Origin: a virus
Lineage: Duplodnaviria; Caudoviricetes
Length of the DNA: 64,000 bases
IMG/VR virus record: IMGVR_UViG_3300035501_000922
Strand: one strand, 5' to 3'
Each line of letters begins with the position of its first letter. The stretch's first letter is position 1. The notes below the pieces were generated by a model. The model ran no database searches and was not told the origin of the DNA. It was given only the letters and a program-made list of their open reading frames with translations. A program made the position numbers and the translations under genes. Positions 5,697 to 49,922 of the stretch are shown piece after piece.

Positions 5697-6482
5697 TTAT
5701 TCATCTGTAGTTTCAATATTGTTTTCCTCATTATTCTTTTTCCTTTTGGGATAATTCTTTAATATTTTATTTCGTATCTTTGATTCTAATTCAACAAAGA
5801 AGTTTTCATCAATCATTTTAATATAGTCTTGAATAAAATTACCTGTTATTAAGAATTCATCAAATTTCTCTTCTACAAATTCTGTTTCAAGACAATTACT
5901 ATCTGATTTGATTAATTCAAAGAAATCATCAACTGTTAATTCTTGAGATAGAATATAACGAATTACTGAACCTAGATTAGAAAGAATGATTACATCATTT
6001 TCATCATTAATTTCAACTTTGAAATTAAGTGTAGTAACATCCCTTTTCTTAGGTGCAATCTCTTCGTCAACAAGTTCTTCTTTATGCTCATTAATATAAT
6101 TTATTATTAATGTGACAAAGTTCTTTTTTATATTCTTAATGAAGAATCTATATGTTAAAAGAATTAGTTCATGTTGGTCATCATCTTCTGCATCTTCAAT
6201 ATCAGGAAAACCTATAGAGAGATAGGTATCAAAAATATTAATAATAAACTTAATAAATTGGTCATGCATCTGCTCTAAGTTTTCTTGTTCTTCTTCATAT
6301 AAATTCTCTTTACTAAAATCATATTTGGTAATAAATGTTTGTATATAATCTTTTTTTCGATATTCTAGTGGATCTTGAAATTGTGATTCAATTGCTTTTT
6401 CTAATAAATTTAACGGAACCTCTGATAAAAAAAGTTCGTCCTCAATATCAGTAGGCTCGTATTCAAATTCTGTATTCCACAC
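5697..6482 (-). CDS. Hypothetical acidic protein
   Basis: 261-aa ORF, GTG start with GAAAGGAG RBS. Confidence 0.75.
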   Translation of the reverse strand: MWNTEFEYEPTDIEDELFLSEVPLNLLEKAIESQFQDPLEYRKKDYIQTFITKYDFSKENLYEEEQENLEQMHDQFIKFIINIFDTYLSIGFPDIEDAEDDDQHELILLTYRFFIKNIKKNFVTLIINYINEHKEELVDEEIAPKKRDVTTLNFKVEINDENDVIILSNLGSVIRYILSQELTVDDFFELIKSDSNCLETEFVEEKFDEFLITGNFIQDYIKMIDENFFVELESKIRNKILKNYPKRKKNNEENNIETTDE

Positions 6483-6906: not shown

Positions 6907-6974
6907 TTAAAAGCACTCCTTTAAATAAAAATTTTTATTTAATTGTCGTTCTATCCGTAAAATGAGTCTTTTCA

Positions 6975-6986
6975 TTTATATATTAT
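6975..6986 (+). promoter_or_regulatory. Early-type promoter motif
   Basis: TTTATATATTAT heading the LRR region. Confidence 0.6.
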
Positions 6987-7093
6987 TTTCGTGTAATTGA
7001 ATAAGAAATAGAGAAATTCGATTATACATAAATAAAATAGGTCGCCTGAACCTAGTCAAAAGAAAGGCATTTAAAATACTGGGAGGTATTTTT

Positions 7094-7495
7094 ATGGCAA
7101 AATTTATTTGGAACACCTGGAACACCCGAAGAAAATTCAAGTCTGCGGTCAAAAGTGCACGAAAGACCGCACAAAAAAAGAATAAGCATGACGAGGCTAC
7201 AAGATGGCTTGTATTATTTAAACAAGCTGTGGCTGTCGAAGACAAATTTGATGCTGACGATGCATTGGAAAAAGTGTTCGACGATATACTCAAAACACAC
7301 TTTATTTGGTATGAGCTGTATGGATATGAGTTGAGAGAAATGTTTGAATTAATGGATTCATTTTATGAAGTTCTGTTAGAAGCCCACAATGAAGAGGGTT
7401 TCCTCAGTGACAGTGAAATGGAAGACGTACGACAGCTATGGATGGATGACGGAGGACTAAGAATAGCAGCATCCATATTATGCTGTAAGGCATAA
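7094..7495 (+). CDS. Hypothetical early protein
   Basis: 133-aa ORF, GGGAGG RBS. Confidence 0.75.
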   Translation: MAKFIWNTWNTRRKFKSAVKSARKTAQKKNKHDEATRWLVLFKQAVAVEDKFDADDALEKVFDDILKTHFIWYELYGYELREMFELMDSFYEVLLEAHNEEGFLSDSEMEDVRQLWMDDGGLRIAASILCCKA

Positions 7496-7514
7496 TATAA
7501 TGAAAGGAGTAATT

Positions 7515-8189
7515 ATGAAAATCGAAAATAACATTATTATTGACTGTCCCGACAAAACCATCACTGAGGCGGTCATTCCTGACACTATAAGAGCTATCAG
7601 ACCGTATGCATTTTGCAAGTGCGTGTCACTTAAGAAAATCGCGTTTTCAGATAGCGTAAAATTTATTAAAAGTGCCGCATTTATGGGTTGCACTTCACTG
7701 GAGAGTGTGGTGCTACCTAAAAATCTAAAAAGGATTGAATCATACACATTTCAGTACTGCTCATCGCTTGAGAAAGTTATAATATCAAATAGCGTAACAA
7801 GCATTGGTGATTCGGCATTCAATAACTGCTCCTCACTTGAGGAGATCATAATCCCGAATAGTGTAACAAGCATTGGGGAGTTTGCATTTTGCAAGTGTGG
7901 ATCACTTAAGGGAATCACGCTTTCAGATAGCCTTGCAGTAATCGGTGAACACACGTTCAGTGAATGTGTGTCTCTTAAGGGAATCACAATCCCTGATAGC
8001 GTCGAAGTAATAGGCTATGGCGCTTTTTACGAATGTTCATCACTGAAAAGTGTAATAATACCGAGCAGTGTAACAGTCATCAAAAGATTTGCGTTTCACA
8101 AATGCCCGATTGAAAGTGTCGTGGTTCCACGCGATACGATCATCGAATATGGTGCGTTTGATGAACGCACGAAAATAATCAGAGTATAA
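7515..8189 (+). CDS. BspA-type leucine-rich repeat protein 1
   Basis: 23-aa repeats LxxIxIPxSVxxIGxxAFxxCxx; no signal peptide. Confidence 0.92.
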   Translation: MKIENNIIIDCPDKTITEAVIPDTIRAIRPYAFCKCVSLKKIAFSDSVKFIKSAAFMGCTSLESVVLPKNLKRIESYTFQYCSSLEKVIISNSVTSIGDSAFNNCSSLEEIIIPNSVTSIGEFAFCKCGSLKGITLSDSLAVIGEHTFSECVSLKGITIPDSVEVIGYGAFYECSSLKSVIIPSSVTVIKRFAFHKCPIESVVVPRDTIIEYGAFDERTKIIRV

Positions 8190-8195
8190 AAATTA

Positions 8196-8229
8196 AGGTC
8201 GGCGGTTCATCTGCCGACCTTATTTTTTT
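8196..8229 (+). terminator. Intrinsic terminator
   Basis: AAGGTCGGCGG/CTGCCGACCTT stem plus T-run. Confidence 0.8.
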
Positions 8230-8304
8230 CATATATTTATACATTATTTTTTCATATCTCGATGACTACAAATTAAATAAACTAAATATGAAAGGAAGAT
8301 TAAT

Positions 8305-8736
8305 ATGAATGATATTCTAGAGATTAAGTCTGGGTTTCTCATTGCTTGTCATGATAAAGACATTAAGAGTATAGAAATACCCAGTACAGTAAAAGTAATT
8401 TGCAAAGGGGCATTTTTAAATTGTTCATCCCTCGAAAGTGTAACAATACCTCCCTCTGTAAATATTATTGGTGAGCTGGCGTTTTTATTTTGTACGTCCC
8501 TCTCAAGCATTGTAATACCTGGTTCAGTAAGAAGAATCAGTAACGGTGCATTTTCCAAATGTATATCCCTTAAATCTGTTGAAATCTGTAGTGGAGTAAC
8601 AAGTATCGGTATACGTGCATTTATTGGTTGTACATCATTATCATCAATTGTAATACCCGAAAGTGTTACAAGTATCGGCGAACACGCATTTGACAAGAAT
8701 ACTGTACAGTATAGATATTTTAGTACATTACGATAG
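8305..8736 (+). CDS. BspA-type LRR protein 2
   Basis: 23-aa LRR_5 repeats; own early motif at 8236-8247. Confidence 0.9.
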   Translation: MNDILEIKSGFLIACHDKDIKSIEIPSTVKVICKGAFLNCSSLESVTIPPSVNIIGELAFLFCTSLSSIVIPGSVRRISNGAFSKCISLKSVEICSGVTSIGIRAFIGCTSLSSIVIPESVTSIGEHAFDKNTVQYRYFSTLR

Positions 8737-8739
8737 ACA

Positions 8740-8774
8740 AAAAAGACTGTGATTTCGTATCACAGTCTTTTTTT
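8740..8774 (+). terminator. Intrinsic terminator
   Basis: AAAAAAGACTGTGAT/ATCACAGTCTTTTTT. Confidence 0.8.
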
Positions 8775-8820
8775 ATCCGTAAAATGGGTCTTTATATTTA
8801 TACATTATTTATGTGTAAAA

Positions 8821-8864
8821 CAATAACTGAGTCAGCTGTAAAGACCTTAAAACAGAGAAGGAGT
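8821..8864 (+). repeat. LRR-array leader repeat copy 1 (divergent)
   Basis: GTCAGCTG-TAAAGACCTTAAAACAGAGAAGGAGT. Confidence 0.8.
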
Positions 8865-8869
8865 ATATT

Positions 8870-9397
8870 ATGAATACAACAGTAGAAAATATGAAAATTG
8901 AAGAAGGCGTTCTTGTTGAATGCCTTGATAAAACCGTTACAGAGGTTTCAATACCTGAAAATGTAAAGGAAATTGGTGCCAATGCATTTTATGGCTGTGA
9001 CAGGTTAAAAACTGTCATAATACCCGAGGGTATAACAGTAATTGGTAGAGGGGCATTCTCGCGTTGCAGTTCTCTCTCAGAGGTTTCAATTCCTAGTAGC
9101 GTTGAATATATTGGTGTAAGTGCATTCATGCGTTGTGGTAACTTAAAATCTATTACAATACCTAAAGGAGTAATAAGTATCGGACCTGCTGCATTCTTAC
9201 ATTGTGACTCCCTTTCAGAGGTTTTAATACCTGAGGGGGTTGAGTATATTGGAACTAATGCATTCTTAAGTTGTCCGAACCTCAAGACAGTAAGAATACC
9301 CAAGACGGTAACGAAACTTGGTATGGCTGTATTTAATAATGGTACCAAAATCATTTGTTGCCATGAGTTTGATAGCTTTGGCCATCCTAAGATATAA
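8870..9397 (+). CDS. BspA-type LRR protein 3
   Basis: IEEGVLVEC N-cap plus LRR_5 repeats. Confidence 0.92.
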   Translation: MNTTVENMKIEEGVLVECLDKTVTEVSIPENVKEIGANAFYGCDRLKTVIIPEGITVIGRGAFSRCSSLSEVSIPSSVEYIGVSAFMRCGNLKSITIPKGVISIGPAAFLHCDSLSEVLIPEGVEYIGTNAFLSCPNLKTVRIPKTVTKLGMAVFNNGTKIICCHEFDSFGHPKI

Positions 9398-9440
9398 TAA
9401 TTAAGTCAGCTGGTTAAAGACTTTAAAACAGAGAAGGAGT
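9395..9440 (+). repeat. LRR-array leader repeat copy 2
   Basis: TAATAATTAAGTCAGCTGGTTAAAGACTTTAAAACAGAGAAGGAGT. Confidence 0.9.
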
Positions 9441-9446
9441 TACAAT

Positions 9447-10040
9447 ATGAGTGAAATTCTGTGCATTGAGAATGGTGTTCTCATCAAATGCCTAGACAAA
9501 ACCGTTACGGAAATAGTCATTCCTGAAGGGGTGACTAGAATTGGTATCGCGGCATTCGAGGACTGCGATAGGTTAACAAATGTCACAATGCCTAAGAGTA
9601 TGACAGTGATTGATGGATGGGCATTTAGGTATTGCAGTTCTCTCTCAGAGATTTCAATACCTAAAAAGGTGACAGAGATTCGTGATGCTGCCTTCTATGG
9701 CTGCGAATCTTTGACAAAGATATCAATACCTAAAGGGGTGGCAGTGATTTCTCGCAACACATTTTATGGGTGCATTAGGTTAAAAACTGTCGTAATACCT
9801 AAGAGTGTGAGATTAATTGGCGGAAGTGCATTCGAACATTGTAGTTCTCTTAGTTCCGTCAGAATACCTGAAGGGGTTGAGGGTATTGGGATTCGTGCAT
9901 TTTTAGATTGCCCAAATATCAAATCAATTAAAATACCTAATAGTGTAAAGACACTTGGAGGAGATGCATTTAATAGAGGCACGAAAGTCATTCGTGTGCA
10001 TGAATTTGATGGCATTGGATGGCAAAAAATGCTGGATTAA
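9447..10040 (+). CDS. BspA-type LRR protein 4
   Basis: IENGVLIKC N-cap plus LRR_5 repeats. Confidence 0.92.
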   Translation: MSEILCIENGVLIKCLDKTVTEIVIPEGVTRIGIAAFEDCDRLTNVTMPKSMTVIDGWAFRYCSSLSEISIPKKVTEIRDAAFYGCESLTKISIPKGVAVISRNTFYGCIRLKTVVIPKSVRLIGGSAFEHCSSLSSVRIPEGVEGIGIRAFLDCPNIKSIKIPNSVKTLGGDAFNRGTKVIRVHEFDGIGWQKMLD

Positions 10041-10044
10041 GATA

Positions 10045-10092
10045 TAATAATCAAGTCAGCTGGTTAAAGACTTTAAAACAGAGAAATGGAGT
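10045..10092 (+). repeat. LRR-array leader repeat copy 3
   Basis: TAATAATCAAGTCAGCTGGTTAAAGACTTTAAAACAGAGAAATGGAGT. Confidence 0.9.
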
Positions 10093-10098
10093 TTTATT

Positions 10099-10872
10099 AT
10101 GAATACATTAGAAATCTTGAAAATTGAAAACGGTGTTCTCACCAGATGCCTCGACAAAAACGTTACCGAAATCACAATACCCAAGGGGGTAACGGAAATC
10201 GGTACAAAAGCGTTCTATAACTGTGAACAGCTTGTATCAGTCGATATACCCGAAGGAGTGAAAAAGATCGGTTACAAAGCGTTTCGAAATTGCGATTCGC
10301 TAATAACGGTCGTATTACCCAAGGGGGTAACCGAGATAGGTAAAGATGCATTCATGGCTTGCACGAGCCTTGAATCTGTATCAATACCTGATACTGTTAC
10401 AAAAATCAACAGCTATGCTTTCTGCGCTTGTAAAGCGCTAAAGTCGATTAAAATCCCAAACGGGGTAAAAGAAATCGGCAATAAAGCATTCTGTGATTGC
10501 AATTCAATACTGTCGGTCGAAATACCCGACAGTGTGATTAAAATCGGAAACTATGCGTTCTGCTGGTGCTGTTCACTTGAAAAAGTGGACATTCCTAAAG
10601 GAATAACATCTATAAATTCCGGATTATTCGCAAAGTGTCACTCCCTTCAGTCTGTTACCATCCCCGAATGGATAAAAACGATTTCCATGGGTGCATTTTA
10701 CTATTGCACGTCGCTTACAGAAGTCAGAATTTCTGACGGTGTGAGAGGAATCGTCAGAAACGCTTTCATAGGTTGCGAGTCTCTAACGGAAGTCTCAATA
10801 CCTAAAAGTGTAACGAGACTTGATGAGTGGGCCTTCGACGAGGAGAAGGTCGTACTGCAAAGGGAAGTATGA
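10099..10872 (+). CDS. BspA-type LRR protein 5
   Basis: IENGVLTRC N-cap plus LRR_5 repeats. Confidence 0.92.
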   Translation: MNTLEILKIENGVLTRCLDKNVTEITIPKGVTEIGTKAFYNCEQLVSVDIPEGVKKIGYKAFRNCDSLITVVLPKGVTEIGKDAFMACTSLESVSIPDTVTKINSYAFCACKALKSIKIPNGVKEIGNKAFCDCNSILSVEIPDSVIKIGNYAFCWCCSLEKVDIPKGITSINSGLFAKCHSLQSVTIPEWIKTISMGAFYYCTSLTEVRISDGVRGIVRNAFIGCESLTEVSIPKSVTRLDEWAFDEEKVVLQREV

Positions 10873-10883
10873 AATCAGAGGAG

Positions 10884-10929
10884 TAATAATCAAGTCAGCT
10901 GGTTAAAGACTTTAAAACAGAGAAGGAGT
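10884..10929 (+). repeat. LRR-array leader repeat copy 4
   Basis: TAATAATCAAGTCAGCTGGTTAAAGACTTTAAAACAGAGAAGGAGT. Confidence 0.9.
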
Positions 10930-10933
10930 TATT

Positions 10934-12031
10934 ATGAGCACGAATCTAAAAATCAAAACTATCCTCTATGATTGTCCTAATAAAAAAATAGAGGCAGTAA
11001 CCGTACCGGACGGAGTAACAATAATTGGGGATAAAGCATTCGATGAGTGCTATTATCTTGAGAATGTAAAAATTCCCGACAGTGTAAAATATATCAAGGA
11101 ATATGCATTCAGAGGTTGCTCTGCACTTAGGTCGGTAGGTCTATCCAAAAATATAGAAAAAATCTACCAAGGTGCATTCGAAAACTGTGCAAAGCTTGAA
11201 GGAATCACAATTCCCGACAGTGTAAAACATATCGGGTACTATGCATTCTCAGGCTGCTCTGCACTTAGGTCAGTGGAACTGCCTAAAAATCTAGAAGTAA
11301 TCAACCACAATGTATTTGAAGACTGTACAAATCTTCAAAGAATCACAATTCCCGATAGCGTTACAGAAATCGGTAATTATGCATTCGCAAATTGCGAATT
11401 AGCTTATGGTGTAAGAATTCCCGACAACGTATCATCGATTGGTAATTATTCATTCAGAGGGTGTATTTCACTTGATGATATAAAAATTCCCGACAGTGTA
11501 AAATATATCGGGTGGTCTGCATTCTCAGGTTGCTCTGCACTAAGGTCAGTAGAGCTGCCCAAAAATCTAAAAATAATCCATAGTGCGTTGTTTTGTCGTT
11601 GTACCGCACTTAGGGATATAGAAATTCCGAATAGTGTTAGAGAAATTGAGGATCATGCATTTAATCTCTGTGTTTCACTTGAAGGAATAACAATCCCGAA
11701 TAGTGTTAGGGAAATAGACGATGGTGCATTTTCTTTTTGTCGTTCGTTAAAAAATATTGTACTTCCGAACAGTATTACGGAAATTAAATATGTTACATTC
11801 TGTAGTTGTATATCGCTTGAAGAAATCACAATTCCGGATAGTGTTACGGAAATAGGCCAGGGGGCATTTGTTCATTGTACAGCCTTAAAGTCTGTTACAA
11901 TTCCGAGCAGTGTAACAGCTATAAAAAAGCGTGCGTTTGCAGAATGTGCAATTGAACGAGTGGAAGTTCCACTCAATACGGATGTTGCAGACGACGCATT
12001 CGATGCTGACGTGGAGATAATCAGAGTGTGA
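10934..12031 (+). CDS. BspA-type LRR protein 6
   Basis: About 14 LRR_5 repeats with internal nucleotide-level duplications. Confidence 0.92.
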   Translation: MSTNLKIKTILYDCPNKKIEAVTVPDGVTIIGDKAFDECYYLENVKIPDSVKYIKEYAFRGCSALRSVGLSKNIEKIYQGAFENCAKLEGITIPDSVKHIGYYAFSGCSALRSVELPKNLEVINHNVFEDCTNLQRITIPDSVTEIGNYAFANCELAYGVRIPDNVSSIGNYSFRGCISLDDIKIPDSVKYIGWSAFSGCSALRSVELPKNLKIIHSALFCRCTALRDIEIPNSVREIEDHAFNLCVSLEGITIPNSVREIDDGAFSFCRSLKNIVLPNSITEIKYVTFCSCISLEEITIPDSVTEIGQGAFVHCTALKSVTIPSSVTAIKKRAFAECAIERVEVPLNTDVADDAFDADVEIIRV

Positions 12032-12038
12032 TAATCAA

Positions 12039-12078
12039 AGAAGACTGCGATATGAAAACGCAGTCTTCTTTTTTTTTT
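12039..12078. terminator. Bidirectional intrinsic terminator
   Basis: AGAAGACTGCG/CGCAGTCTTCT between convergent genes. Confidence 0.8.
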
Positions 12079-13951
12079 AGAATTTAATAATATTTGTTAT
12101 TGTGTCAGTTTTTCTATTGACACCATTTTTACTTTTACCTTCTTCAGTGAATCTTGAACCGAATATTTCAAGTACAGGTTTAAACGGTGCAATGATATTA
12201 TTAATCATTGTTGAATAGTCAATATACGGTTGTGTCCACTCAGGAATTGTAGCATTACTCGGTATTGCTAATACCTGTAATCCTCTTTTTTTATAAGTCC
12301 ATTGACCTTGTATTTGGTCTTTATACTTTTCACGGTCTTCACCAAGAGCAACATCCACAAAACTATTCCATGCTTCAGGCCCAAGTTTTTTATACTTAGA
12401 TTTATATTTTTTTGGTAAATCCTCATACCAATCTTTCTTTTTTGGATTTACATAATCTATACCGTTATCTTTAGTCTTAGTGACAAAGATTCCAGTAGTA
12501 TCATTAAAAATCTTCTCAATGATCGTATCATAAATATCAGGATGAGTTCTTTCTAAATCAGCCATATCTTCCTCAGTAAAAATATTCATCTTTACTAAAC
12601 TTACCTTTGACGGGAAATCAATAGCATTATCAGGATATAGAATATTCCATGCTAGAGCACCACGAACACTTTGCTCAGAAGCTGGGTCTTTATATGCACC
12701 AAGTTCTTTAGCACTTCCATTAGGTAAAAACGTTCTTTCACCTCTTTGTATTGATTTTCTGATTTCTTCTTTGAACTCTCTGATTCCTTTTATCATTTCT
12801 TTCAACTCAACAGTTTCTGAGTTAAGTATATGATTCTTAATTAACTTCATGAATACTTCTTCAGCATATTCTGAAGTTGTAGCTTTTTTAAAGTCAAATC
12901 CTTTAATATCAGCTTTTGGTGGAGAAAGTAAATTACCCTCTCTCAGTTTCTGTTTTGAAATATATCTTTTCTTTGCTTTACCTATAACCAATAGAGTATT
13001 AAAGAACTCATTTTTCATATTAAAACGAGGTCTATACTCTTCAGGAATATTTGAATACTTTCCATAATGAATAAGCATATCATAAATAGCATTAGTTATT
13101 GTATACGTAATAGTATTTACAACAACGAATCCATTATGCTCAAAGTCTCTTCCATATGTGTTATCTCCTACAACATCATCAAATATATAATTGATTAATG
13201 TATCAAGAGATAAGAAGTTTGAGTCAGTGTCTATAACTGTGACAACACGACGCTTAAAATTTTTTAATCTATATATTCTATCAACCGATAGATACTTTAC
13301 ATAACAATACTTCATCAAATAATCAGAGAGGACTCCTAATGTTCCTTCAATTTTTTTAGGTGGGTCATTAGGGTCCATGAAGTACTGCTTATTTACAAAC
13401 TTATTCCAGTCTTTTGCTGTTTTATTTGAAAAATCATACCTATATTCATTAGGAATTTTTTGTAACCACTTATCATCTTTAGTATCAGCATACTCAAGAT
13501 TCTCAACGTTTTCAAATATAGTTTCAAATAAAGATTTAATAAAATCGTGGTCATGAATAAATTCAATCATATTATTTTTATAATATAACCGAGTAATTTC
13601 TTCTTCACTTAATGAGAGCAAATAATTGTATAGTATTTCTTCATCATTATCTTGAGGTTGTAGTATTTTATTAATTAATCTATCAACCAAATCATTTATA
13701 GATTTCACTTGAACAAAATCGTCTATTATAATATCTTCTTTTAAAACGACATTAATCCATTCGATAAGTTCTGTTAAATCTAAGTATATATAGTTATCAG
13801 CAAGAAACGATTCAAACATTGTTTCTGCTGTAGAAATTACTGATTGAGCAGTAAGTGTTGTGGCAGGACCACTCCATTTAGAATAAAATGCTGAAGATGG
13901 TGCACCACTCGATCCATAATATGAATTCATATTTATCTTTTCGTTAGCTTG
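12077..13951 (-). CDS. Family B DNA polymerase, polymerase-domain subunit, exon 2
   Basis: QANEKINMNSYYG (motif B), IDTDS (motif C), KKRY, IKGFD. Confidence 0.88.
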   Translation of the reverse strand, partial: QANEKINMNSYYGSSGAPSSAFYSKWSGPATTLTAQSVISTAETMFESFLADNYIYLDLTELIEWINVVLKEDIIIDDFVQVKSINDLVDRLINKILQPQDNDEEILYNYLLSLSEEEITRLYYKNNMIEFIHDHDFIKSLFETIFENVENLEYADTKDDKWLQKIPNEYRYDFSNKTAKDWNKFVNKQYFMDPNDPPKKIEGTLGVLSDYLMKYCYVKYLSVDRIYRLKNFKRRVVTVIDTDSNFLSLDTLINYIFDDVVGDNTYGRDFEHNGFVVVNTITYTITNAIYDMLIHYGKYSNIPEEYRPRFNMKNEFFNTLLVIGKAKKRYISKQKLREGNLLSPPKADIKGFDFKKATTSEYAEEVFMKLIKNHILNSETVELKEMIKGIREFKEEIRKSIQRGERTFLPNGSAKELGAYKDPASEQSVRGALAWNILYPDNAIDFPSKVSLVKMNIFTEEDMADLERTHPDIYDTIIEKIFNDTTGIFVTKTKDNGIDYVNPKKKDWYEDLPKKYKSKYKKLGPEAWNSFVDVALGEDREKYKDQIQGQWTYKKRGLQVLAIPSNATIPEWTQPYIDYSTMINNIIAPFKPVLEIFGSRFTEEGKSKNGVNRKTDTITNIIKF

Positions 13952-15176
13952 CAAAATTAAAAATTATACTTTTTAGAAATTTCTACCCATGATGCTTTAT
14001 ATTTTATATTATATATTTTTGATGCTGGTATGTCCAGTTGTTTGGATATAACTGATACTTTAATGCCTTTCTCTAGCATAGTACATATATCTTCTGCTAA
14101 TTTAGAATCTATATGCCTTATTATATGAAAGTCATATTCACATGATATATCTGTCCAGTTTAATCCACTTCGAATATTACGAACCGTTGGTTTAGGTACA
14201 CTGAGTAATTCAGAAACTTCACTAATATTATATCCAAGCTCTAAATATTCACATATGTTTCGAGCCATCTCAATATCAATATTTTTTTTTGTTGAAAATG
14301 TATAATTACATGAAATAGATTTCCAACACGTTCGATTTTTTATATTCTGGACTGTTGTTACAGGTATATCAAGTTTACTGGCTATATCTTTAACTCGTTC
14401 ACCATCCTCAAGCATTTGACATATTCTCTCAACGGTTTCATTGGTATTTTTAGCTACAGGGCATTCCTCACCAACTCTTCGTAAACCTGTTTTTATAGCA
14501 TGAGAATTATTATGATAAGCAGTACACCATTCCAAATTTGTAACACTGGGATTTAATTTGTTGCCATCAATATGATTAACCATAGGAAAGTTGTGTTTGT
14601 TATCAAGAAACGTACTTGCAACTATTCGATGAAGACTAAAAGTTCTGGTTTTTTTAATACCATTTCGTTCACCATATAAACCAACTGAATAATACCCCGT
14701 ACTATTAATCCAACAAGGAACATTTTTCTTTAATTTATGGTCATAAATAATTCCATTTTCGAAGACTTCATAACGTTTTTTCTGTATACATGGGTAGTTT
14801 ACATATTTACTTTTCATTTCATATTTTTCCTTTCATTTTTTAATGAAAAGTTAAAGTATAATTTTTTAATTTAGACTATATCTTCGATGCATATTCTGTC
14901 ACCAAATATACATCGCCTTCCGTTTCGGATTTAGAAAAATCCTACTCTACTCACTTCTTCACTTAAGTATTTCTCTTAAGCTATGCTTTCGATAGTCGTT
15001 GAACTCACATCCATAAAGGATGCTTCGTTGCGTCGATTACTACATTAATAACCTTTTTACTATACCTTTGGAGTTACCCATTGCCACTATTATATTACTA
15101 TAATAATTTAGTAGTTATTAATTACGTAGTGTTCCCGCAATTAGAAAGGTTACGTAGCCAAGCTTTAACTAAGTTA
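13952..15176 (-). mobile_element. Group I intron in DNA polymerase carrying an HNH endonuclease in P9
   Basis: P1 CGUAGU/GCUACG; AATTGCGGGAAC, GTTCAACGACTA, AAGATATAGTC; terminal G; splicing restores DRS|QANEKINMNSYYG. Confidence 0.9.
13957..14817 (-). CDS. Intron-encoded HNH homing endonuclease with C-terminal HTH repeats
   Basis: LHRIVA...VNHIDGNKLNPSVTNLEWCT...NNSHA; three HTH-like repeats. Confidence 0.9.
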   Translation of the reverse strand: MKSKYVNYPCIQKKRYEVFENGIIYDHKLKKNVPCWINSTGYYSVGLYGERNGIKKTRTFSLHRIVASTFLDNKHNFPMVNHIDGNKLNPSVTNLEWCTAYHNNSHAIKTGLRRVGEECPVAKNTNETVERICQMLEDGERVKDIASKLDIPVTTVQNIKNRTCWKSISCNYTFSTKKNIDIEMARNICEYLELGYNISEVSELLSVPKPTVRNIRSGLNWTDISCEYDFHIIRHIDSKLAEDICTMLEKGIKVSVISKQLDIPASKIYNIKYKASWVEISKKYNF

Positions 15177-15593
15177 ACTACGGTCTAGGTCTTGGTATTC
15201 GTAACTATCAAAACCTAATGTTTCTCCTACACTAAACATTTGTTTTTTATATGCTTTACGACTAGCAGCCCATTTATCAAGCATTAACGAAATTGGGTTT
15301 AATGCTTCATCTTGAGTTTTATAAAATGTGCCATTACCTGCAATAAGAGGCTTTCTTTCAAGAGCCCAGTCAAAAACACTTATTAGTGTAGTTTCTCTAT
15401 TTTCACCAGTGTAGTTATTATCTAATTCTACACGTGGATTCATTGTTTGTTCTTTTATCATTTTAAGAACTATTTTTTCCACTTTATCTTTGTCCCAATC
15501 GGGATTTAACCGACACATTATGTTTACCATCCGTTTTTTATACTTATTGATAAACTTACTATCGGCATTAATATGAGTATTCATAAAACTCAT
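15177..15593 (-). CDS. Family B DNA polymerase subunit, exon 1
   Basis: IAGNGTFY...RKAYKK...DLDRS joins exon 2 in frame. Confidence 0.85.
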
Positions 15594-18567: not shown

Positions 18568-18686
18568 TAAAAATCACATCCTTTAGTGGTATTTCTATTA
18601 AAACTATGTTTTTTCATATATTTATACATTATTTTTTCGTATCTTGATGCTTACAATTTAAATAAACTAGAAAGGGTGTGATAACC

Positions 18687-18977
18687 ATGGGCAAGAAAAA
18701 AAAGAAGAAAAACGATAATAAGCATTATGTTCAAGGATATGACCAAAAGGTACTTGACCGTATTGCTGATTCATTGGAAGAGTATATAAACCTTTTTGAC
18801 CAATTCATTATTCGTGATGGAACTGATGAGAAGGAATATAAAAAAGCCATGAAAATTATTCGTAAAGCAATTAAGAATTTACGAGAAGGAAACGGTGACG
18901 AAGTCTTTGATTCTGAAAGATATCAAGAGATGATGGAACGGATGGAAAATAACGTGGGGTATAGAGATGAATGTTGA
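18687..18977 (+). CDS. Hypothetical early protein with poly-Lys N-terminus
   Basis: RBS; early motif 18621-18632. Confidence 0.7.
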   Translation: MGKKKKKKNDNKHYVQGYDQKVLDRIADSLEEYINLFDQFIIRDGTDEKEYKKAMKIIRKAIKNLREGNGDEVFDSERYQEMMERMENNVGYRDEC

Positions 18978-31076: not shown

Positions 31077-31193
31077 ATACACAGCTATAAATATATGGTT
31101 ATGACTATTTTTGTCATAACCATATATTTTTCACTCTGGTTTGATTCAAAAAACAATCAGATAACCAAATCATATAGAAAGGAATTGATAATC

Positions 31194-34157
31194 ATGAGTA
31201 CTGCATATACGGGTAATAATATCTATATAACAAATAGTTCTCAGTTAACAACTGATATTGGTCATAATGGCGATATTGCATATGTAATAAATACAGTAAC
31301 CAGTAAAGTAATTGGTCAATATCATAAATTAAATGGTGGTTGGGTAAAATCAATTACTTCTAATTTAAATGCAAATGATATATTAGATTTAATAGAGCAA
31401 GTATCCAATAATACTGAAAATATAGAAGATCTAAAAGATAGATTAACCGAAATGGGTTATGATATCGATACCATAAATAATGAAATACTCGAATTAAAAA
31501 ATGCAAGTAATGATAATACAAATGATAGAAGTGCCGGATTAAAAGTTGATGGTGATTCATTTACAATAGGGGAAACAACAACAACAGCTTCGGATGGTGC
31601 TGAAATATTTAATAATTATGAAAAAAATATAGCCACTGGTATGTATTCTCATGCTGAAGGAAGTATCACAACAGCAAGTGGTTATTCATCACATGCTGAG
31701 GGTGCAAGTACTACTGCAAGTGGAGCAAACTCTCATGCAGAAGGTGCAAGTACTACTGCAAGTGAATCAAATGCTCATGCGGAGGGTGCAGGTACTACAG
31801 CAAGTGGTATGAATTCACATGCAGAAGGTGCAGGCTCTACTGCAAGCGGAGTGAATTCCCATGCGGAAGGTTCAGGTACCACTGCTAGTGCGTCGAATTC
31901 ACATGCAGAGGGATATAGTGCTAAAGCATATGGCATGCTTTCTCATGCGGAATGTAATGGTGCTATCACTGGTATTCTAGGTAATACTAATTGGGGTAAC
32001 GCTGCTCATGCTGAAGGAGCTGATACTCAGGCTGTGGGAAACCAGTCTCATGCTGAGGGTAATGGATGCACTACTGGAGATCCTGAGTTAAAAAAAGGTG
32101 TTGGTAATAACGCACATGCTGAAGGACTACTTACACATGCATATGGTGAAAATTCTCACACAGAAGGAAACGCAACAACAACATATGGACAAACATCTCA
32201 TGCTGAGGGTTATAGTACTACAGCGTATGCTGTATATTCTCATGCTGAAGGAGAATATACTAATGCATACGGGGAATGTTCACACGTTGAAGGTGCATCA
32301 GGTAGTTCATCCGGAAAATATTCTCATTCTGAGGGTTATTCCAATTCATCTAATGGCGAAGCTTCGCATGCAGAAGGTGGTTCAACTACAGCCAATGCAA
32401 CTTATGCTCACAGTGAAGGTAGTAGTACAACTGCCAGTTCAACAGCATCTCATGCTGAAGGTGGTTATACAACTGCAAGTGGCATACAATCTCATGCTGA
32501 GGGTGGTGGTACGACTGCGAGTGGTAATCAATCTCATGCTGAAGGTGCCGCTACTCAGGCTATAGGAAACCAGTCTCATGCTGAAGGTGCTAGTACTACA
32601 GCGAATGGAGACTACTCACATGCCGAAGGTGTTAATACTAAAGCAAACGGAGCTTATTCGCACGCTGAAGGTCTTTCTACTACATCAGGTGGAAATTATT
32701 CCCATACTGAAGGAACACAAACTTATACATATGGACAGGATTGTCATGCTGAAGGTTATAGTACTAAATCAGGTGTTGATGGAAATAGCAATATTCAGCA
32801 TTGTCATGCTGAAGGCATCTATAGTGTCGCATCTGGATATGCTTCACATGCTGAAAATGACAGTGTATCAAGTGGACAATATGCACATTCTGAGGGAACC
32901 AGTACTGCAAGTGGCGATTGGTCACATGCCGAAGGTCAGGGATCTACTGCAAGTGGTTCTATATCTCATTCTGAAGGCTGTGCAACTGTAGCAAGTGGTC
33001 AATTCTCACACGCTGAAGGAAGCAATACAAAAGCGATTAGTTATTGTTCTCATGCAGAAGGATATAATTGTGTCGCTGGATTAAAAGATGATGAAAACAA
33101 CATTGAAAAGAAGTATTGTCACGCTGAAGGCCATGAAACCACAGCAACAGGAGATTATTCACACGCCGAGGGAGAAAGTACAACAGCCAGTGGTGACCAA
33201 TCGCATGCAGAAGGTGAATCAACCACGGCTAGCGGATCTTATGCTCATGTAGAGGGCTGCGGTGCTAAAGCAACAGGCATGAATTCACATGCAGAAGGTA
33301 ATTACACAACAGCAAGTGGAGTTTACTCCCATACTGAAGGTCGAAGCACAACTGCATCAGGTTATGTTTCTCATGCTGAGGGATCCGACACAACAGCCTC
33401 GGCTTCATATTCGCATACAGAAGGAAATAGCACACGTACATATGGAGATTACTCGCACGCTGAAGGTTGTGGAACTGTAGCTGGAAATAAGGATAACAGC
33501 AGTATGGCAAACAGTTGCCATTCTGAAGGAAATGCCACTACTGCAAGTGGTAATATGTCTCATGCTGAAGGAAGTAATACAATAGCCAGTGCTGATCAAT
33601 CCCATGCTGAGGGTTTAAATACTACGTCAAGCGGCGGAGGTGCACATTCAGAAGGGCAATATACTACTGCATCGGGTCAAGCTTCGCATGCAGAAGGTAT
33701 GTATAGTACAGCAAGTAATAGTATGGCCCATGCTGAAGGTGACGGAACGACTGCTAGTGGAGTTTATTCTCATTCTGAGGGACTTAGAACCACAGCAGTC
33801 GGATCAATGTCACATGCTGAAGGTTATGAAACTACTGCAAGTGGTTCTTCTTCGCATGCTTCTGGTTCTAATACCATTGCTTCAAGTGATAACCAAACAG
33901 TAATAGGAATATATAATGAGGAAAAAGAAAATCATTTATTTATAATCGGTAATGGTTCATACGATTCTGATAACAAAGAAGAAAGGCGATCCAATGCTTT
34001 TTCTGTTGACAATACCGGTAAAATTTATATTAATAATTCTGAAACAGGAATTGATTTAAATGATGTACTCGCAAGACTTGTTAAGTTAGAAGAAATTGTT
34101 AGTACTTTAGCTTCAAATTCTGATTCCGCAAATACCCTAGATGAAGAGGAGTTTTAA
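31194..34157 (+). CDS. Fibre/adhesin with YadA-like 14-aa SHAEG beta-roll repeats
   Basis: About 50 repeats TTASGxxSHAEGxx, IGNG...RSNAF neck, coiled coils; late promoter 31152-31163. Confidence 0.8.
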   Translation: MSTAYTGNNIYITNSSQLTTDIGHNGDIAYVINTVTSKVIGQYHKLNGGWVKSITSNLNANDILDLIEQVSNNTENIEDLKDRLTEMGYDIDTINNEILELKNASNDNTNDRSAGLKVDGDSFTIGETTTTASDGAEIFNNYEKNIATGMYSHAEGSITTASGYSSHAEGASTTASGANSHAEGASTTASESNAHAEGAGTTASGMNSHAEGAGSTASGVNSHAEGSGTTASASNSHAEGYSAKAYGMLSHAECNGAITGILGNTNWGNAAHAEGADTQAVGNQSHAEGNGCTTGDPELKKGVGNNAHAEGLLTHAYGENSHTEGNATTTYGQTSHAEGYSTTAYAVYSHAEGEYTNAYGECSHVEGASGSSSGKYSHSEGYSNSSNGEASHAEGGSTTANATYAHSEGSSTTASSTASHAEGGYTTASGIQSHAEGGGTTASGNQSHAEGAATQAIGNQSHAEGASTTANGDYSHAEGVNTKANGAYSHAEGLSTTSGGNYSHTEGTQTYTYGQDCHAEGYSTKSGVDGNSNIQHCHAEGIYSVASGYASHAENDSVSSGQYAHSEGTSTASGDWSHAEGQGSTASGSISHSEGCATVASGQFSHAEGSNTKAISYCSHAEGYNCVAGLKDDENNIEKKYCHAEGHETTATGDYSHAEGESTTASGDQSHAEGESTTASGSYAHVEGCGAKATGMNSHAEGNYTTASGVYSHTEGRSTTASGYVSHAEGSDTTASASYSHTEGNSTRTYGDYSHAEGCGTVAGNKDNSSMANSCHSEGNATTASGNMSHAEGSNTIASADQSHAEGLNTTSSGGGAHSEGQYTTASGQASHAEGMYSTASNSMAHAEGDGTTASGVYSHSEGLRTTAVGSMSHAEGYETTASGSSSHASGSNTIASSDNQTVIGIYNEEKENHLFIIGNGSYDSDNKEERRSNAFSVDNTGKIYINNSETGIDLNDVLARLVKLEEIVSTLASNSDSANTLDEEEF

Positions 34158-48420: not shown

Positions 48421-49922
48421 TATGATTTACCTCCTGACTTATTAGAATTTGATGATCCATTAACGATGGCGTCATATTCTCGTTTTATTGCTCTTAAATA
48501 ATCATTTGATTTATGATACCTTTCGGCAACTTCAGGATTTTGTTCAAGATACCCTATAAATTCCGCTCGAGCCAATTCAGTATTCCTAAATTTTTCGATT
48601 GCATCTTCTTTGTTTCTTCTTTTTTTACTCTCTCGATCTTTTATTGATGCATTGATTTTTCCTCTCTCAGAAGCTTCTGATCTGTCTTCCTCAAGTTGAT
48701 TAAGTACTTTTTGATTTTCGTAATCAGAATCAAATTCAAGATCAGCCTGACGAGCAGCTGTTTTATTTTTCTTAGTAATAGTATCAAAGTCATCCTGATG
48801 TTTCTTATCAAATTCAAGATCAGCCTGACGAGCAGCTGTTTTATTTTTCTTAGTAATAGTATCAAAGTCATCCTGATGTTTCTTATCAAATTCAAGATCA
48901 GCCTTGCGAGTTGCCTTTCTCCTACGATATTCTTCATCATGTGTTTTTTTCTTTTCCATTTTTGATGCCTGTTTCATATCATCAATATAACTTGATTTAG
49001 CGTCACCAAACACAACCTTGCCTGGCTTACTTCCGATAACTTTATCTATACCATCAGCTATACTATTTATCATTCTATCAAATATAGATTGATGTTTTTG
49101 GATAGCTTTTGAATACAGTCCATTTCTTTCTCTATTCATAGCAAGCTTCCATGCAATAACACCTTTATCCGCCATTTCAGGATTTTCTTCAGTTATGTGT
49201 TTATAAAATTTATAGTTTTCACTTTTTTGATGCATTTTTGCTTCACTTAATTTATTTTTCCATGTTGTAATTTCTGGCTTAAATTTATGAATGGCAACTC
49301 CAAGTGTTATAACCGCTGTTGCAGCTGCCGCAACTTTCTTAACGTTTGTTGCTTTATCACTGTCAGTTCCAACCCATTTCTTTTTAGCCTTTTCCCATTT
49401 ACCCTTTAGTGTATTAGGGTCAATATCTTTTTCTTTACTCATTTTAAGGATAGCTTCAAATTCCTTATCTAATTCAGATAGAGATTTCATATCTGAAAAA
49501 TCTAATCCACCCTCATCACAAAGAACTTGTATTTTTTCCTTAGCTAATTCTGGGTGTTGCTTTAAAAGTAAATCCATTTTCTTTTCATTAGACTTAAATT
49601 TAAAACCAATACTTTTTACTTTATCAATAAGTCGGTCAATCATTTCCATGAACTTCTTACTCATTTCAATGATTTTTTCACCAATTTTTTCAATAAAATT
49701 TTTATTTTCAGATTCTAAAACAAGTTGCTTGTCTTCATCAATTTCACCAATGACTGATGATTCAAAAATAATAAGATCTGTTTTTGATTTTAAATCGGCA
49801 TAAGCCTCATAAATATCATCCAATGATGTTTCGAGATATCTTTGAAATAAGCTACAAGGATCGTTAAATACTGATCCTTCACATCCATTGTTTATATAAT
49901 TAACACTAATCAATGAGGTCAA
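48420..49922 (-). CDS. Putative internal head protein
   Basis: VLE|S plus amphipathic helix; AAAATAVITLGVAI segment; late promoter 49948-49959. Confidence 0.6.
   Translation of the reverse strand: MTSLISVNYINNGCEGSVFNDPCSLFQRYLETSLDDIYEAYADLKSKTDLIIFESSVIGEIDEDKQLVLESENKNFIEKIGEKIIEMSKKFMEMIDRLIDKVKSIGFKFKSNEKKMDLLLKQHPELAKEKIQVLCDEGGLDFSDMKSLSELDKEFEAILKMSKEKDIDPNTLKGKWEKAKKKWVGTDSDKATNVKKVAAAATAVITLGVAIHKFKPEITTWKNKLSEAKMHQKSENYKFYKHITEENPEMADKGVIAWKLAMNRERNGLYSKAIQKHQSIFDRMINSIADGIDKVIGSKPGKVVFGDAKSSYIDDMKQASKMEKKKTHDEEYRRRKATRKADLEFDKKHQDDFDTITKKNKTAARQADLEFDKKHQDDFDTITKKNKTAARQADLEFDSDYENQKVLNQLEEDRSEASERGKINASIKDRESKKRRNKEDAIEKFRNTELARAEFIGYLEQNPEVAERYHKSNDYLRAIKREYDAIVNGSSNSNKSGGKS
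48729..48904. repeat. 78-bp coding tandem repeat (about 2.3 copies)
   Basis: ADLEFDKKHQDDFDTITKKNKTAARQ unit at 48729, 48807, 48885. Confidence 0.9.

Follow-up and report, generated by a model that had tools for sequence, protein, structure and literature searches.

In the 64,000-nucleotide stretch of viral DNA analysed here (IMG/VR record IMGVR_UViG_3300035501_000922, Duplodnaviria; Caudoviricetes; hereafter the window), a short untranslated leader sequence of ∼45 nt is repeated in front of four consecutive genes, g3 to g6, for BspA-type leucine-rich repeat (LRR) proteins. We found that this leader is more conserved than the genes that it precedes, that it is linked at a fixed distance to the Shine–Dalgarno sequence (SD) and the start codon, and that it is also present before unrelated genes in other phages. 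The finding is more general than a reading of the single window had suggested: the leader is a portable module. We tentatively favour the view that it acts at the RNA level as a leader of early mRNAs, placed at the ribosome binding site (RBS), with a core that would be read by a putative sequence-specific factor.

The leader is more conserved than the adjacent coding DNA

An earlier note on this DNA had placed copies of the leader at 9395, 10045 and 10884 and a further one at about 8821. All four are there; the first three extend from a TAATAAT run through the SD, and the last is a diverged copy. They are numbered here by position, the diverged copy being copy 1. The 32-mer core occurs in three exact copies, against none in 100 shuffled sequences, and a 16-mer from the 3′ part of the core occurs three times where 0.06 copies are expected. 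Sub-motifs of the leader were found nowhere else in the 64 kb, with 0–0.2 copies in shuffles.

Pairwise identity among the four leaders in the window was 88–100%. For the LRR genes behind them, the corresponding values were 58–72% over the first 150 nt, 50–66% over the whole genes and only 30–55% at the third positions of conserved four-fold codons. The earlier statement that the leader is more conserved than the flanking coding DNA is borne out most clearly by this last comparison. Identity so far above that of the adjacent synonymous sites therefore argues against a simple recent duplication, which equal values would have favoured.

Eight copies from three lineages were then compared in one alignment: those of the window, those of a pig-gut phage (L009, L033 and L020) and that of a further contig (L006). 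Two parts are near-invariant in all eight, one of 10 nt that ends in CAGCTG and one of 21 nt of the form TAAAG...GAGAA, separated by a spacer of 1–3 nt whose sequence is free. The count of variable columns (5 of the 31 in the core versus 24 of the other 29 in the leader) is descriptive, conservation having served to define the core; what is independent of that definition is the free spacer midway along it. The 5′ flank is conserved only in being A/T-rich. At the other end, 0–2 bases separate the core from the GGAG of the SD, copy 3 (in front of g5) having a 2-nt insertion here, and the end of the core lies 9–13 nt from the ATG in all eight copies, always in the same orientation. The variable sites are therefore the 5′ flank, the 1–3-nt spacer, which falls in the loop of a possible RNA hairpin, and the spacers around the SD.

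The perfect dyad of 6 + 1 + 6 positions to which the earlier note had drawn attention is present in copies 2–4, but the other copies keep only 4–5 bp around AAAGnCTTT. Outside copies 2–4, including the copies in other phages, the spacing from CAGCTG to AAAG varies from 1 to 3 nt.

The leader occurs before unrelated genes in other phages

Metagenome contigs were scanned once, with an exact pattern, and a profile built from the copies was then applied to the pig-gut phage. The exact pattern gave two true copies, the matches L007 and L008 being coding sequence. One, in L009, part of a 44-kb pig-gut contig, stands before a 104-aa STIV-B116-like (DUF1874) gene; the other, in L006, a contig of 1.9 kb, stands before a 92-aa open reading frame (ORF) of no assigned family. 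The profile added a third and more diverged copy in the pig-gut phage (L020:3520-3574), which precedes a 50-aa ORF that has a terminator of its own; this copy was found unchanged in several samples. An orthologous copy of the element is also present in L033 and L034. Thus the leader does precede LRR genes 3–6, as had been noted, but it is not specific to LRR genes.

The pig-gut phage has genes for large RNA polymerase beta-like proteins, and its copies of the leader lie 12–14 nt downstream of predicted early start sites of the type known from phage AR9. When its sampled proteins were compared with the window by tblastn, no similarity was seen.

The earlier note had proposed a scan of the whole genome and of relatives. 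In the window and in relatives no extra copies came to light; the new copies, before non-LRR genes, came from metagenome contigs. The profile found no more copies in the 64-kb window, in L004 and L005 (the closest relatives, found via the polymerase) or in the complete 250-kb relative G001, and none beyond its two copies in the 33 kb of the pig-gut phage that was scanned. The LRR genes of G001 are without such a leader, and the small LRR genes P0091 and P0109 lie in tight operons that also lack it. Among 5.8 billion proteins there was no homologue of g4 above ∼50% identity that might carry a diverged leader. GenBank phages searched by blastn with the region and with the leader gave nothing, AR9 being included for the leader query. 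Exact and degenerate patterns gave only chance matches in coding DNA in IMG/VR (L001–L003 and L023), and in 185,000 prokaryote genomes only coding coincidences were found (L010–L013); the element is absent from both collections. Given this patchy presence and the absence from databases and relatives, the leader is therefore a rare module and not a general signal of these phages.

The arrangement of the leader favours a role in the RNA

The earlier note had offered an operator, an RNA-level or translational element, and a recombination site as possible explanations. The anatomy of the leader favours the second of these. The copies all run in one direction and are firmly tied to the SD and start codon, each cistron has one, and a change in the stem is paired (see below).

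Read from 5′ to 3′, the module would comprise an A/U-rich run, a weak 5-bp AAGUC/GACUU hairpin, an invariant and presumably single-stranded tract UUAAAACAGAGAA, the SD (GGAG) and the AUG. One predicted early promoter, with its start at ∼8815, would give one g3–g6 message in which every LRR cistron has its own copy of the leader, so that all four would be initiated, and probably stabilized or repressed, via the same site. The core is kept in sequence and not merely in shape, from which we infer that there is a sequence-specific reader, which could be a protein or an RNA. The repeated copies may also serve as patches of homology through which genes are gained, lost or swapped. Early 5′ untranslated regions (5′UTRs) of AR9 carry predicted, uncharacterized motifs (PMC5312081). 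In Bacillus, ribosomes at a strong SD or at a polypurine tract stabilize mRNA, including an early RNA of phage SP82 (PMC7509114, citing Hue et al. 1995).

The AAGUC/GACUU stem described in the earlier note is real, although it turns out to be weak. It would enclose a loop of 9–11 nt that always contains CAGCUG and that takes up the free spacer. In the diverged copy L020:3520-3574, the two changes within the core are the two partners of one stem pair, converting U-A to A-U; the share of paired cells is 95%. A similar layout recurs in leaders of other sequence. At the DUF1874 locus of the pig-gut phages, L027 and L030 keep the upstream gene and promoter but have another leader behind them (type C), in which a 7-bp hairpin abuts the SD, while the leader of L025 (type B) has a 5-bp hairpin and is also found before another gene in L014. 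These two types and the leader described here (type A) share the order of start site, ∼12–17 A/U-rich bases, small hairpin and the same extended SD. We count the placing of a small hairpin just before the same SD in types B and C in favour of a role in the RNA.

Several points weigh against this. With about −2 kcal/mol, the hairpin is of marginal stability; in copy 1, where one pair is lost, the value is +0.7. Folds of the whole leader are no more stable than those of shuffled sequences (z of +0.4 to +0.6). The covariation is limited to a single pair, and 52 of 500 shuffles score equally well (eight sequences, one broken pair); moreover, the A-to-T change of the L020 copy also falls at the centre of the DNA dyad, where it is neutral. 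The window yielded no candidate for a binding protein or an antisense RNA, and its only antisense partner of at least 12 nt is the opposite strand of the leaders themselves. Ten other predicted early leaders in the window are without the element. Finally, three unrelated leader types are interchangeable at DUF1874, which means that the exact sequence is not required for the expression of that gene.

An alternative fold that hides the SD by pairing of GACUUU with GGAGU appears in the minimum free energy folds of copies 3 and 4. These folds are not more stable than those of shuffles, and both copy 1 and the diverged copy of the pig-gut phage lack the structure; we rejected it as a conserved switch. 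The Rfam covariance models gave no match to the leaders (8000–12200, E up to 1).

Leaders and alleles are shuffled at the DUF1874 locus

The upstream gene, promoter and leader of the contigs L009 and L033 are 97–98% identical, as is the sequence farther downstream. Between these parts, the DUF1874 gene is only 78% identical (50% at four-fold sites), with the divergence starting ∼45 nt into the gene. Considering L009, L014, L025, L027 and L033 together, the DUF1874 gene is a recombination hotspot, with alleles of 74–86% protein identity and three leaders between flanks that are ∼97% identical. Alternation of leaders and diverged alleles between matching flanks indicates that both are shuffled at this locus. 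The earlier suggestion of a recombination site therefore holds in the sense of a homology junction, with mosaic breakpoints at the leader in the pig-gut phages, but no recombinase gene and no features of site-specific recombination accompany it.

This raises the main rival possibility, which we consider real though on the unlikely side, that the leader is a mobile regulatory cassette without any specific reader. Recombination or gene conversion, acting within phages as well as between them, would recently have copied a good RBS context, and the identity of the copies would reflect their young age and their use as homology junctions rather than a constraint on the sequence. The exchange of the DUF1874 gene between near-identical flanks, and the finding of type A, B or C leaders at one locus, are as expected from such a cassette. 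The g6 protein is closer to that of g1 (53% amino acid identity) than to those of g3–g5 in pairwise comparisons, yet g6 bears a g5-type leader. In the window phage, further promoter-plus-leader cassettes are repeated in front of unrelated genes (8233 and 18618), the LRR island is apparently missing in L005, as judged by the order and length of ORFs only, and the element is absent from G001. The promoter-early stem-loops (PeSLs) of T4-type phages act in the same way (PMC2839356). However, the differences between copies are distributed unevenly. A young copy should be uniformly identical and an old neutral copy uniformly diverged, whereas here the 1–3-nt mid spacer and both flanks vary and the 31 core positions hardly do. 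The core is, moreover, kept across lineages without detectable similarity in their sampled proteins.

The whole LRR island (7094–12031) seems to have been inserted, since in L005:3338-3443 the next ORFs after the polymerase gene agree in order and length with those of the window from 6906 back to 2079. A second promoter-plus-leader cassette of ∼60 nt, ∼90% identical between its copies, lies at 8195–8305 (g2) and at 18580–18690, the latter before an unrelated basic protein of ∼95–99 aa whose start codon is uncertain.

Processing, operator, promoter and integron-like explanations

It is unlikely that the leader is a site of RNA processing and stability. A host endoribonuclease of the RNase Y kind, or one of the phage, would then cut the A/U-rich run before the hairpin and convert a polycistronic early RNA into monocistronic pieces, whose new 5′ ends the hairpin would shield, together with ribosomes bound at the purine-rich SD tract. 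Copies 2–4 are indeed intercistronic, with an A/U-rich run immediately 5′ of the hairpin, and their purine tract and strong SD resemble known Bacillus 5′ stabilizers (PMC7509114). In AR9, early 5′ ends are partly processed-like in dRNA-seq (PMC5312081). Against this, the hairpin is weak, and in the promoter-proximal copies it lies 12–14 nt from the predicted 5′ end and so is not terminal.

A DNA operator appears quite unlikely. A dimeric repressor of the phage or host would bind the CAGCTG and AAAGnCTTT palindromes and block transcription of the LRR operon. Both short palindromes are kept in nearly all copies, the change in the diverged pig-phage copy at the central base of the dyad is neutral for the dyad, and the promoter-proximal copies fall at +12 to +50. 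But the spacing between the palindromes varies by 1–3 bp, and the perfect 6 + 6 dyad is confined to the window. An operator is not needed at each cistron, three more times within one operon; the orientation is single, and in copies 2–4 the fixed distance is that to the ATG and not to a promoter. No helix-turn-helix (HTH) gene adjoins the array, the nearest being a homing-endonuclease-like ORF within the polymerase gene. The operator suggestion is accordingly weakened.

The leader matches neither promoter class, as had been stated earlier: it fits neither the early form, TATAyATTAT-N6-G, nor the late form, AACA-N6-TA/G, except for an accidental match in copy 3. The AR9-type early promoter (TATATATTAT-like box, six bases and a start G) does not lie within the leader, and the box is found upstream of copy 1. 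In seven of the eight copies, the core has AACA followed by N6 and then GA or AG, which is not a late promoter. Copy 3 fits the late form solely through its 2-nt insertion, and the start would then fall inside the SD.

It is very improbable that the leader works as an internal promoter, either of a third class or of the host sigma-A type with a TATAAT of the 5′ flank, and so yields a separate transcript for each LRR gene. There is a TTGATA-18-TATAAT match (11 of 12) ending at 9398 and a weaker one ending at 10048, with a start that would coincide with the base of the hairpin. The TATAAT is, however, missing from copy 4 and from every copy outside the window. Promoter-like matches in the region are not enriched (26 versus 19.8 ± 4.1 in shuffles), any such start would be placed upstream of the conserved core, and no other gene in the 64 kb is preceded by the element.

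Least probable of all is an integron-like array in which a dedicated recombinase would cut out circles of a single leader and its gene: the repeat–gene–repeat arrangement of four direct repeats would suit it, but the scanned neighbouring ORFs contain no recombinase domain (and no RNA-binding domain, 7094–7495 and 5697–6482 being without any Pfam match), no long imperfect inverted repeat of the attC kind was seen (the sole dyads are of 6 bp and 4–6 bp), and the element is joined to the SD and start codon, standing singly behind promoters outside the window.

Comparison with known systems

The PeSLs of T4-type phages have been described as mobile regulatory cassettes (Arbiol et al. 2010; PMC2839356). 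Like the leader, they are brief stretches of conserved non-coding DNA that recur between small accessory early genes, with copies at the borders of gene replacement, and in both cases direct repeats could loop out single genes. In the pig-gut phage such a border is seen just behind the leader, where the identity of L009 and L033 falls from 97–98% to 78%. PeSLs differ in consisting of a sigma-70-type promoter plus a terminator stem-loop, neither of which is found in copies 2–4. These three copies lack an early box, and copy 1 and the pig-phage copies follow a box that is separate from the leader; the 5-bp A/U-rich stem (∼−2 kcal/mol) has no T run and is not a terminator. The leader is also fused to the SD and start codon, inside one operon.

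AR9 resembles the window phage in having two multisubunit RNA polymerases, the same early promoter grammar and conserved early-leader motifs of unassigned function (PMC5312081). The leaders themselves share no sequence similarity, and the nine AR9 early leaders that we inspected as possible homologues are short, bear no resemblance to the element and lack a 30-nt invariant block. The Bacillus 5′ stabilizers (the SP82 polypurine tract, and the strong SDs of aprE and gsiB; PMC7509114, citing Hue et al. 1995) resemble the leader, which likewise has a purine-rich tract with a strong SD in an early phage message and would guard the downstream RNA against 5′-to-3′ decay. They differ from it in having no need for a 30-nt invariant sequence upstream of the SD. 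Integron attC sites also form arrays of gene plus repeat units. Here the repeat is 5′ of each gene and includes the RBS, and there is neither an integrase nor a folded bottom strand of the attC type.

Phage translational operators include the MS2 coat-protein hairpin and the sites of T4 gp43 and RegA, the last being one repressor that acts on many early messages. In these, a small hairpin or single-stranded motif by or over the SD or AUG is read sequence-specifically by a phage protein, and the position of the leader is the same. Its hairpin is weaker, its sequence is unrelated and its binding protein is putative. A more specific proposal, which we regard as rather unlikely, is that the leader is the operator of a trans-acting phage factor (an RNA-binding protein or a small RNA) that ties early accessory genes into a post-transcriptional regulon, exchanged among AR9-like gut jumbo phages as leader-plus-gene units. 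With the same reservation, such a regulon would include the signal-less LRR binders of the window and, in the pig-gut phages, the DUF1874 gene; DUF1874 is the family of the AcrIII-1 viral ring nucleases.

To our knowledge, very little is known about post-transcriptional gene control in jumbo phages that have their own RNA polymerases. A sequence-constrained leader, reused for each LRR cistron and before accessory early genes elsewhere, would offer a concrete and testable handle on it. It could serve as a marker for early accessory, possibly counter-defence, genes in metagenomic jumbo phages, and also in reporter fusions or as bait, and the arrays of leaders show how such phages can assemble and reshuffle genes for variable binders. 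If all that has spread by recombination is an RBS context, the leader would be an ordinary, lineage-restricted feature.

The phage and the layout of the LRR operon

The 64-kb window encodes a GroEL-like chaperonin, a divergent family-B DNA polymerase, a piece of the beta subunit of a phage multisubunit RNA polymerase, and virion proteins. A TATAyATTAT box followed by six bases and G occurs upstream of genes at 11 sites. In the Bacillus phage AR9, the consensus of the early promoters of the virion RNA polymerase is AAATATATATTAT-N6-G(+1) (PMC5312081). Because the box matches this consensus, and in view of the gene content, we assign the window to an uncultured AR9-like jumbo phage, whose host is probably a Firmicute.

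Six BspA-type LRR genes (g1–g6) span 7515–12031 (PF13306, E 1e-33 to 1e-131), and inspection of the N-termini by eye gave no obvious signal peptide. The layout of g3–g6, derived from promoter and terminator motifs alone, is given in Table 1. The sequence of the promoter box, exact over 8794-8810, is found again at 8233 and 18618. No terminator-like hairpin with a T run was found between g3 and g6, either by reading the sequence or with a simple terminator scanner, which also overlooked the hairpin listed in Table 1 because its loop is 9 nt. Most simply, g3–g6 would form a single early operon. Since one predicted promoter and one terminator bracket the four genes, copy 1 is assigned to the 5′UTR (predicted length 55 nt) and copies 2–4 are intercistronic. 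The stop codon of g3 is the first TAA of leader copy 2. The genes g1 and g2 form separate promoter and terminator units and have no copy of the leader.

Table 1. Predicted features of the g3–g6 unit, with positions in the window
Feature	Position	Strand	Details	Evidence
AR9-type early promoter of g3–g6 (predicted)	8794..8815	+	box 8794-8808, N6, predicted start G8815	motif match
Leader copy 1 (diverged), 5′UTR of g3	8821..8869	+	stem arms 8829-8833/8843-8847; SD 8860-8863	nhmmer E 1.5e-14
g3, BspA-type LRR	8870..9397	+	175 aa	PF13306 E 8e-63
Leader copy 2, intercistronic	9395..9446	+	stem arms 9403-9407/9419-9423; SD 9436-9439	
g4, BspA-type LRR	9447..10040	+	197 aa	PF13306 E 6e-55
Leader copy 3, intercistronic	10045..10098	+	2-nt insertion ahead of GGAG	
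g5, BspA-type LRR	10099..10872	+	257 aa	PF13306 E 9e-74
Leader copy 4, intercistronic	10884..10933	+		
g6, BspA-type LRR	10934..12031	+	365 aa	PF13306 E 1e-131
Likely terminator of the g3–g6 unit	~12040..12078	+	G+C-rich hairpin and T run	read from sequence

Other features of the window

The listed start of g1 at 7500 is probably wrong, as a strong SD lies downstream of it; the ATG at 7515 gives the N-terminal cap that is common to the LRR genes. Some early promoters (6949–7004 and 8771–8826) have an upstream element, CCGTAAAAT, ∼20 nt before the box, which resembles CCGTATTAAAA upstream of many AR9 early promoters (Table S2, PMC5312081).

The gene for the family-B DNA polymerase is split (12077–15593, minus strand). 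Residues 1–139 of the intact relative are encoded at 15174–15593 (65% identity) and the remainder at 12077–13954, and an ORF between the two pieces (13957–14817) has HNH and HTH domains. In L004 and L005, the polymerase is encoded by one gene of 762–771 aa. The split looks like the insertion of an intron or a homing endonuclease.

Two repetitive coding sequences were also seen. At 31095–34157, a protein of 1020 aa consists mostly of 42-nt (14-aa) tandem repeats and matches phrog_25468 (function unassigned) in 12 stretches. At 48729–48884, a 500-aa ORF of the minus strand contains a perfect tandem duplication of 78 bp.

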